From the IMG/VR virus record IMGVR_UViG_2617271072_000002: a DNA stretch of 6,863 bases. One strand, given 5' to 3'. The position numbers and the translations under genes are program-made. The DNA comes from a virus (lineage: Duplodnaviria; Heunggongvirae; Uroviricota; Caudoviricetes). This document shows, in pieces, positions 6,481 to 6,863 of this stretch. The first letter of the stretch is position 1. Each line of letters opens with the position of its first letter. The notes below the pieces were generated by a model. That model did not search any database. It worked only from the letters and a program-made list of their open reading frames with translations, and was not told the DNA's origin.

Positions 6481-6582
6481 ATGGGTCTGTTACATGCCAT
6501 TATAGGTAATGCCGGTGAAATTAATGCATCAGATGCACAACAGGAATTAGGGGCTGTTTTAGGTGAGGGAGAAAATGGGTAA
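6481..6582 (+). CDS. Small low-GC ORF (MGLLHAIIGNAGEINASDAQQELGAVLGEGENG), likely truncated by the IS1 insertion
   Basis: ATG at 6481 preceded by an AAGGGA ribosome-binding site. Codon usage is AT-rich, unlike neighbouring phage genes. Its stop codon (TAA 6580-6582) lies inside the IS1 terminal repeat, so the native C-terminus is probably lost. The longer track ORF 6400..6582 overlaps the tape measure end and is less likely. Confidence 0.3.
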   Translation: MGLLHAIIGNAGEINASDAQQELGAVLGEGENG

Positions 6583-6863
6583 TGACTCCAACTTATTGAT
6601 AGTGTTTTATGTTCAGATAATGCCCGATGACTTTGTCATGCAGCTCCACCGATTTTGAGAACGACAGCGACTTCCGTCCCAGCCGTGCAGGTGCTGCCTC
6701 AGATTCAGGTTATGCCGCTCAATTCGCTGCGTATATCGCTTGCTGATTACGTGCAGCTTTCCCTTCAGGCGGGATTCATACAGCGGCCAGCCATCCGTCA
6801 TCCATATCACCACGTCAAAGGGTGACAGCAGGCTCATAAGACGCCCCAGCGTCGCCATAGTGC
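6578..6863 (-). mobile_element. IS1 insertion sequence, partial (one end plus about 286 bp; continues beyond the window)
   Basis: Sequence from 6578 (GGTAATGACTCCAACTTATTGATAGTG...) matches the reverse complement of the IS1 terminal inverted repeat and adjacent insB 3' region as recalled. The - strand translation gives the InsB C-terminal sequence [57 protein letters not shown]. Confidence 0.9.
6594..6863 (-). pseudogene. insB: IS1 transposase InsB, C-terminal portion, with an apparent 1-nt deletion near 6686-6688
   Basis: Canonical InsB ends ...[35 protein letters not shown] with its stop at 6594-6596 on the - strand. Here the frame breaks after RQHL and reads [10 protein letters not shown]... 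to a premature stop at 6613. This fits GCCGTGCAGG in place of the recalled GCCGTGCCAGG. The gene start lies beyond the window. Confidence 0.75.

Follow-up and report, generated by a model that had tools for sequence, protein, structure and literature searches.

We found that the window, i.e., the whole 6,863-nt stretch of DNA analyzed here, runs out inside a copy of IS1 whose position is best explained by a single transposition. In the proposed course of events, the element would have entered the coding sequence of an accessory bacterial PH-domain (bPH_1) gene after codon 32, with formation of an 8-bp target duplication. The gene itself would represent cargo, carried on a low-GC cassette occupying the variable slot that separates the tape measure gene from the Mu N-like gene of an SfV/e14-type lambdoid myovirus prophage, which would reside at tRNA-Pro next to yejM. 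Such an event would leave the accessory allele null or severely truncated and the structural tail genes on both sides untouched, while polarity on the N-like, baseplate, and fiber genes would be weak during induction with Q and of no consequence after deletion of Q and the lysis genes. To this reading as a whole, with ordinary prophage decay as its setting, we assign a probability of about 0.9. The insertion as such is already known, as RefSeq annotates the exact event in four complete genomes, and it involves a well-known element showing its typical behavior. IS1 insertions in prophages are common, and this one matters little; mild novelty is confined to the variable cargo slot and its capacity to hold a phage-borne bacterial PH-domain gene.

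The IS1 end, its target duplication and the empty site

Positions 6578–6863 of the window correspond to IS1 bases 768 down to 483 (99.7% identity across 286/286 bases, E = 2e-145); thus, insB lies on the minus strand, and the end of the window falls inside the element. The first base of the 23-bp terminal repeat GGTAATGACTCCAACTTATTGAT is located exactly at 6578. Near-full-length matches to this segment (IS1A/IS1B copies) are present in 4,959 of 5,426 complete E. coli genomes. The element is known to be 768 bp long and to generate target duplications of 8 or 9 bp (PMC12428005). As the window comprises only 286 bp of it, with the 3′ part of insB as the only portion of the transposase frames, the second end and the duplication were viewed in complete genomes sharing the junction. 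Base-by-base reading of the EC_J_9 locus (L001) revealed a complete IS1 of 768 bp with IRL at its far end, flanked by the 8-bp direct repeat AGAAAATG, the right copy of which lies outside the window. The imperfect terminal inverted repeats start with GGT(A/G)ATG, and the insA/insB programmed −1 frameshift is annotated by PGAP in loci L001, L004, and L005 under the label [quoted passage not shown]

When IS1 and one copy of AGAAAATG are removed from L001, the exact sequence of the IS1-free relative GTEN_24 (L002) is restored. This precise empty site argues for simple transposition and against a prophage boundary. EC_J_9 is the only genome in which the duplication was read at base level; MINF_2E and strain 2196 were assessed by PGAP annotation, which shows the same split gene in both. 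For the genome from which the window itself derives, simple transposition is suggested by its 99.85%-identical relatives. The preliminary description had placed the start of IS1 at 6578, 150 bp beyond the stop codon of the tape measure gene and within AT-rich sequence, and had noticed a small ORF cut short by a stop codon inside the IS1 repeat; all of this proved accurate. It had also proposed to look beyond the window for the other IS1 end with an 8–9-bp duplication, for the gene resuming on the far side and for IS1-free relatives. We located IRL and the octamer in EC_J_9, the remainder of bPH_1 followed by the Mu N-like and baseplate genes in relatives, and the empty site in GTEN_24. Coordinates of the features are collected in Table 1.

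Table 1. Features at and around the IS1 insertion. Positions refer to the window unless a locus is named; L001 is the EC_J_9 locus.
Feature	Position	Strand	Remarks
Phage tail tape measure gene	4593–6428	+	L001 10694–12529, WP_100752917.1; SfV orf14
Left part of AT-rich bPH_1 cassette, tape measure stop to IS1	6429–6577	+	38.9% GC; absent from SfV
Truncated bPH_1 5′ end	6481–6582	+	PGAP: same 102-nt ORF in EC_J_9 and MINF_2E
Left copy of 8-bp target-site duplication AGAAAATG	6570–6577		In L001, octamer recurs immediately beyond the far end of IS1
IS1 right terminal inverted repeat (IRR)	6578–6600	−	Reverse complement GGTAATGACTCCAACTTATTGAT; partner IRL at L001 13424–13446
IS1 bases 768–483	6578–6863	−	99.7% over 286 bases; full 768-bp element at L001 12679–13446
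insB 3′ part (transposase frame)	6613–6858	−	From ORF list and translation; 1-bp deletion at 6688
IS3 between lysis and packaging modules, IS1-bearing lineage	L008 22065–23568; L013 4374–5877; L012 273–5782		

The interrupted bPH_1 gene and its cassette

The tape measure protein of relatives counts 611 aa, and its gene ends at window position 6428 (L001 12529 minus an offset of 6101). The truncated ORF downstream encodes 32 native residues and one Gly, followed by TAA at 6580–6582 within the IS1 repeat; its start at 6481 is the one given by PGAP in relatives, and the ORF listing shows an in-frame ATG further upstream, at 6400. The intact, IS1-free allele encodes a bacterial PH-domain protein of 125 aa. 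Its version in GTEN_24 matches the Pfam family bPH_1 (PF08000) with 163.2 bits (cut-off 27.7, E = 3e-48) from end to end, residues 3–122 aligning with profile positions 2–121/122, and residues 1–32 of this protein are encoded in the window. The part of the gene lying beyond the insertion point, from codon 33 on, begins with GTCGAACTTGCC. The insertion yields a null or severely truncated accessory allele. In L001, PGAP predicts an ORF of 100 aa (13433–13735) with a TTG start within IRL, which continues in frame into bPH_1 residues 31–125.

As for the possible role of the protein, it belongs to phrog_7115 (PHROG 7115), annotated as of unknown function, and its nearest solved structures are the structural-genomics PH domains 3DCX and 3HSA (E ~1e-39), both entries without an assigned function. 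Searches for PADLOC defense systems and NCBIfam families returned no match to it. For bPH_1 and the two alternative cargo proteins described below, PADLOC, NCBIfam, PHROGs, and Pfam give only “PH domain” or “unknown,” and a literature search on bPH_1 in prophages retrieved nothing relevant.

We determined that the gene is part of a cassette of ~430 bp inserted between the tape measure and Mu N-like genes. The cassette as a whole has a GC content of 37.0% vs. 52% and 56% for the neighboring tape measure and N-like genes, respectively; in the window, its left part reaches 38.9% compared with 54.7% for positions 1–6428. Phages SfV, SfI, and SfII are ~97% identical on both sides of the slot and lack the cassette; in SfV, orf14 (tape measure) and orf15 (Mu N-like) lie 45 bp apart, and the gap in SfI is likewise about 45 bp. 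SfI and SfV, two lambdoid myoviruses of the cos-packaging type, can be induced and form plaques (PMC3636060), and since they do without the cassette, bPH_1 is dispensable for making tails. In turn, a bPH_1 gene with 88.8% identity occupies this slot in the syntenic tail module of the plaque-isolated Edwardsiella phage EPP-1 (L007 5001–5378), and therefore viable phages of more than one genus of host carry the cassette. Among 5,426 E. coli genomes, related flanks occur in 947 and the cassette in 28, four of which have it split by IS1. Other SfV-like E. coli prophages contain hypothetical genes at this site, encoding proteins of 225 aa (L010 1738–2415) or 176 aa (L011 1739–2269) with no Pfam or PADLOC match. 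The occurrence of unrelated genes in one slot makes it look like a variable cargo site. Absence between the same flanking genes in close relatives and deviant composition are traits of a moron (an autonomous cargo cassette), and both were found here.

A simple scan of the cassette detected no sigma-70-like promoter. Beyond the end of the window, just upstream of the N-like gene and within an expected single late operon, there is a terminator-like hairpin ATGCCCACTTCGGTGGGCAT with a T-run behind it (L002 12984–13003, equal to L001 13760–13779). As hairpin and T-run are conserved at this position in SfV and EPP-1, they are part of the backbone rather than of the cassette; a cassette-specific terminator was considered and rejected, given the hairpin of cassette-free SfV. 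Whether empty or filled with bPH_1, the 225-aa or the 176-aa protein, the slot directly precedes this conserved hairpin in every case. One could imagine that SfV-type phages possess a dedicated cargo hotspot between their tape measure and N-like genes, the occupants of which could be uncharacterized genes of benefit to the lysogen or directed against other phages, but we regard this idea as rather doubtful. If it were true, the IS1-split allele (MINF_2E/EC_J_9) and the intact one (VTB97448v, MJ-T) would constitute a natural knockout pair for tracing the function of a phage-borne bPH_1 protein.

Downstream tail genes, relatives and prophage decay

The structural tail genes on both sides of IS1 are intact in relatives. 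In EC_J_9, the N-like (DNA-circularization), baseplate (P, V, gp46, J, YmfQ), and fiber genes are all preserved, beginning 353 bp beyond IS1, which makes the earlier suggestion that the insertion likely inactivates or polarizes downstream tail genes an overstatement. The same description was right to place IS1 directly 3′ of the tape measure gene, but overstated the consequence when it had the element separating the tail module from its baseplate genes. No tail gene is disrupted, because the interrupted bPH_1 gene is optional cargo. The lesson for annotation is that such a locus does not represent a broken tail module.

A tail defect could also arise with every gene intact, if strong polarity of IS1 switched off the N-like, baseplate, and fiber genes. 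The element is classically strongly polar in both orientations, as known from the gal and lac literature, and it sits here within the late operon, with at least 10 tail genes downstream. A scan of the IRL junction for a hybrid outward promoter was negative, the one promoter-like site in IRL being that of IS1 itself, which points inward; a hybrid promoter driving the tail genes was rejected on this ground. Yet, this is a lambdoid late operon for which relatives encode a Q-family antiterminator, and the terminator-like hairpin with its T-run already occupies the same gap in the functional phages SfV and EPP-1, so that late transcription must resist terminators in any case. Taken together, the antiterminator and the hairpin lead us to expect read-through during induction. 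In two of the four genomes with this IS1, polarity no longer makes a difference, since the IS3-adjacent deletion removed Q and the lysis genes; the prophage of EC_J_9 and B1S11 is thus defective regardless of IS1. We therefore consider a tail-defective prophage caused by polarity unlikely. Judging from the gene content of relatives, polarity on the N-like, baseplate, and fiber genes is probably limited during induction when Q is present, although some reduction of baseplate gene expression may occur.

The junction of the window is found base-exact in four complete E. coli genomes, namely, EC_J_9, B1S11, strain 2196, and MINF_2E, which were independently sequenced and come from different hosts and countries. 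All four contain the full IS1. The far side was viewed in three of them (EC_J_9, MINF_2E, and strain 2196), and in each the remaining part of bPH_1 is followed by the N-like and baseplate genes. These data bear on another alternative, according to which IS1 in the window's own genome marks the end point of a rearrangement or deletion, or a prophage boundary, with the baseplate genes no longer next to it. The window does end within IS1, with the far side outside of it, and rearrangements of this kind occur in the phage group, as in strain E2, where corA lies beyond an IS1. However, the E2 element is placed in different sequence, since homology between E2 and this prophage ends together with the tape measure gene, and the window shares 99.85% identity across all 6,863 bases with EC_J_9, i.e., with a genome in which the 8-bp duplication was read. 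We hold a boundary or rearrangement to be very improbable. An assembly artifact, in which a contig end would have been joined to, or collapsed onto, one copy of the repeated IS1, has hardly any chance at all: the window ends in a multi-copy repeat and its eight homopolymer indels indicate an error-prone assembly, but the junction recurs to the base in the four independent genomes and shows a proper target duplication in EC_J_9. Simple insertion of IS1 into the cargo gene remains our preferred reading of the junction.

The comparison with EC_J_9 also informs on the quality of the window sequence. The two differ by two substitutions (4961, 4964) and eight single-base length changes, all in homopolymer runs (68, 365, 3439, 5004, 5108–5109, 5897, and 6688). 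As a result of indels, the sheath gene is split into 2329–3465 and 3371–3826, and the tape measure gene into three ORFs (4593–5078, 5137–5913, and 6033–6428; indels 5004, 5108–5109, and 5897). The last ~30 codons of insB are frameshifted by a CC-to-C deletion at 6688 relative to L001, which is missing from all four RefSeq genomes sharing the junction and is most likely a read error. The ratio of eight indels to two substitutions and the confinement of indels to homopolymers argue for sequencing error rather than real pseudogenes. On this basis, the broken sheath, tape measure, and insB frames are probably sequencing or assembly errors, and annotators should note that the apparent sheath and tape measure pseudogenes are almost certainly a homopolymer sequencing artifact.

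Other insertion sequences have reached related prophages in different strains. The prophages of VTB97448v and MJ-T, located at tRNA-Pro/yejM, retain an intact bPH_1 gene and contain neither IS1 nor IS3; MJ-T has a different antiterminator/lysis module. In MINF_2E, IS1 is accompanied by IS3 between the lysis and packaging modules, with Q, holins, GH108 endolysin, and Rha kept upstream of IS3. EC_J_9 and B1S11 also possess IS1 and IS3, together with an adjacent deletion from KilA-N to Rha that includes Q and the lysis genes. In GTEN_24, the prophage occupies another site and has an IS1 in yfdR. The lineage thus illustrates a stepwise IS-driven decay, involving, depending on the strain, IS1, ISCro1, and IS3 accompanied by a deletion next to it, and the IS1 of the window is one of several independent IS hits within this ordinary process.

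Several further observations were made on these prophages. In the tail-fiber region of VTB97448v, an IS66-family element (ISCro1) has inserted independently (L015 23231–25846). In strain E2, the tape measure stop is followed after ~50 bp by an IS1, beyond which corA and a further IS1 are located (L003 4576–5343 and 7050–7826), and the IS1-associated rearrangement cuts that prophage off from its baseplate genes. An IS1 hotspot with E2 as the second independent hit in the same AT-rich island was considered and rejected, as E2 is homologous to this prophage only up to the tape measure stop and continues in different sequence. The right end of the prophage in EC_J_9 (L001 20903–23619) comprises a truncated invertase-like recombinase gene, an opposite-strand DUF262 gene for a 629-aa protein and a DinI-like pseudogene, followed by tRNA-Pro; these right-end genes are common to IS1-free relatives. 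The iss (increased serum survival) lipoprotein gene occurs after the lysis cassette in GTEN_24 and MJ-T (L009 13956–14249) and is absent from the EC_J_9/MINF_2E version.

Comparison with known systems

With regard to the mobile element, its terminal repeat is identical to that of E. coli IS1 (IS1A/IS1B), and it shares with them the length of 768 bp (in relatives), the insA/insB frameshift, the 8-bp duplication, and an AT-rich target. It differs in nothing of substance, apart from the 1-bp homopolymer deletion at 6688, which would alter the InsB C-terminus of the window copy. The intact allele of the interrupted gene matches the whole profile of PF08000 bPH_1 (DUF1696) proteins, such as 3DCX and 3HSA. 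Unlike these two, which are stand-alone bacterial proteins, it is phage cargo and, in the window, cut after codon 32.

Compared with phage morons, defined as additional genes located between conserved late ones, a simple scan detected no promoter of the cassette's own, and the hairpin downstream is common to cassette-free SfV. The cassette resembles morons of the HK97/lambda type in being present or absent between two conserved genes, in its lower GC content and in the alternative genes found in the same slot. As for the prophage, it is collinear with SfV, SfI, and SfII and displays ~97% nucleotide identity with them in the tape measure and N-like genes. What sets it apart from these three phages is the ~430-bp bPH_1 cassette in place of a gap of ~45 bp, and its integration at tRNA-Pro/yejM. 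With SfV, SfI, SfII, and e14, it shares the same gene order, an HK97-type head, a Mu-type contractile tail, an HNH endonuclease and a terminase small subunit of the P27 family.
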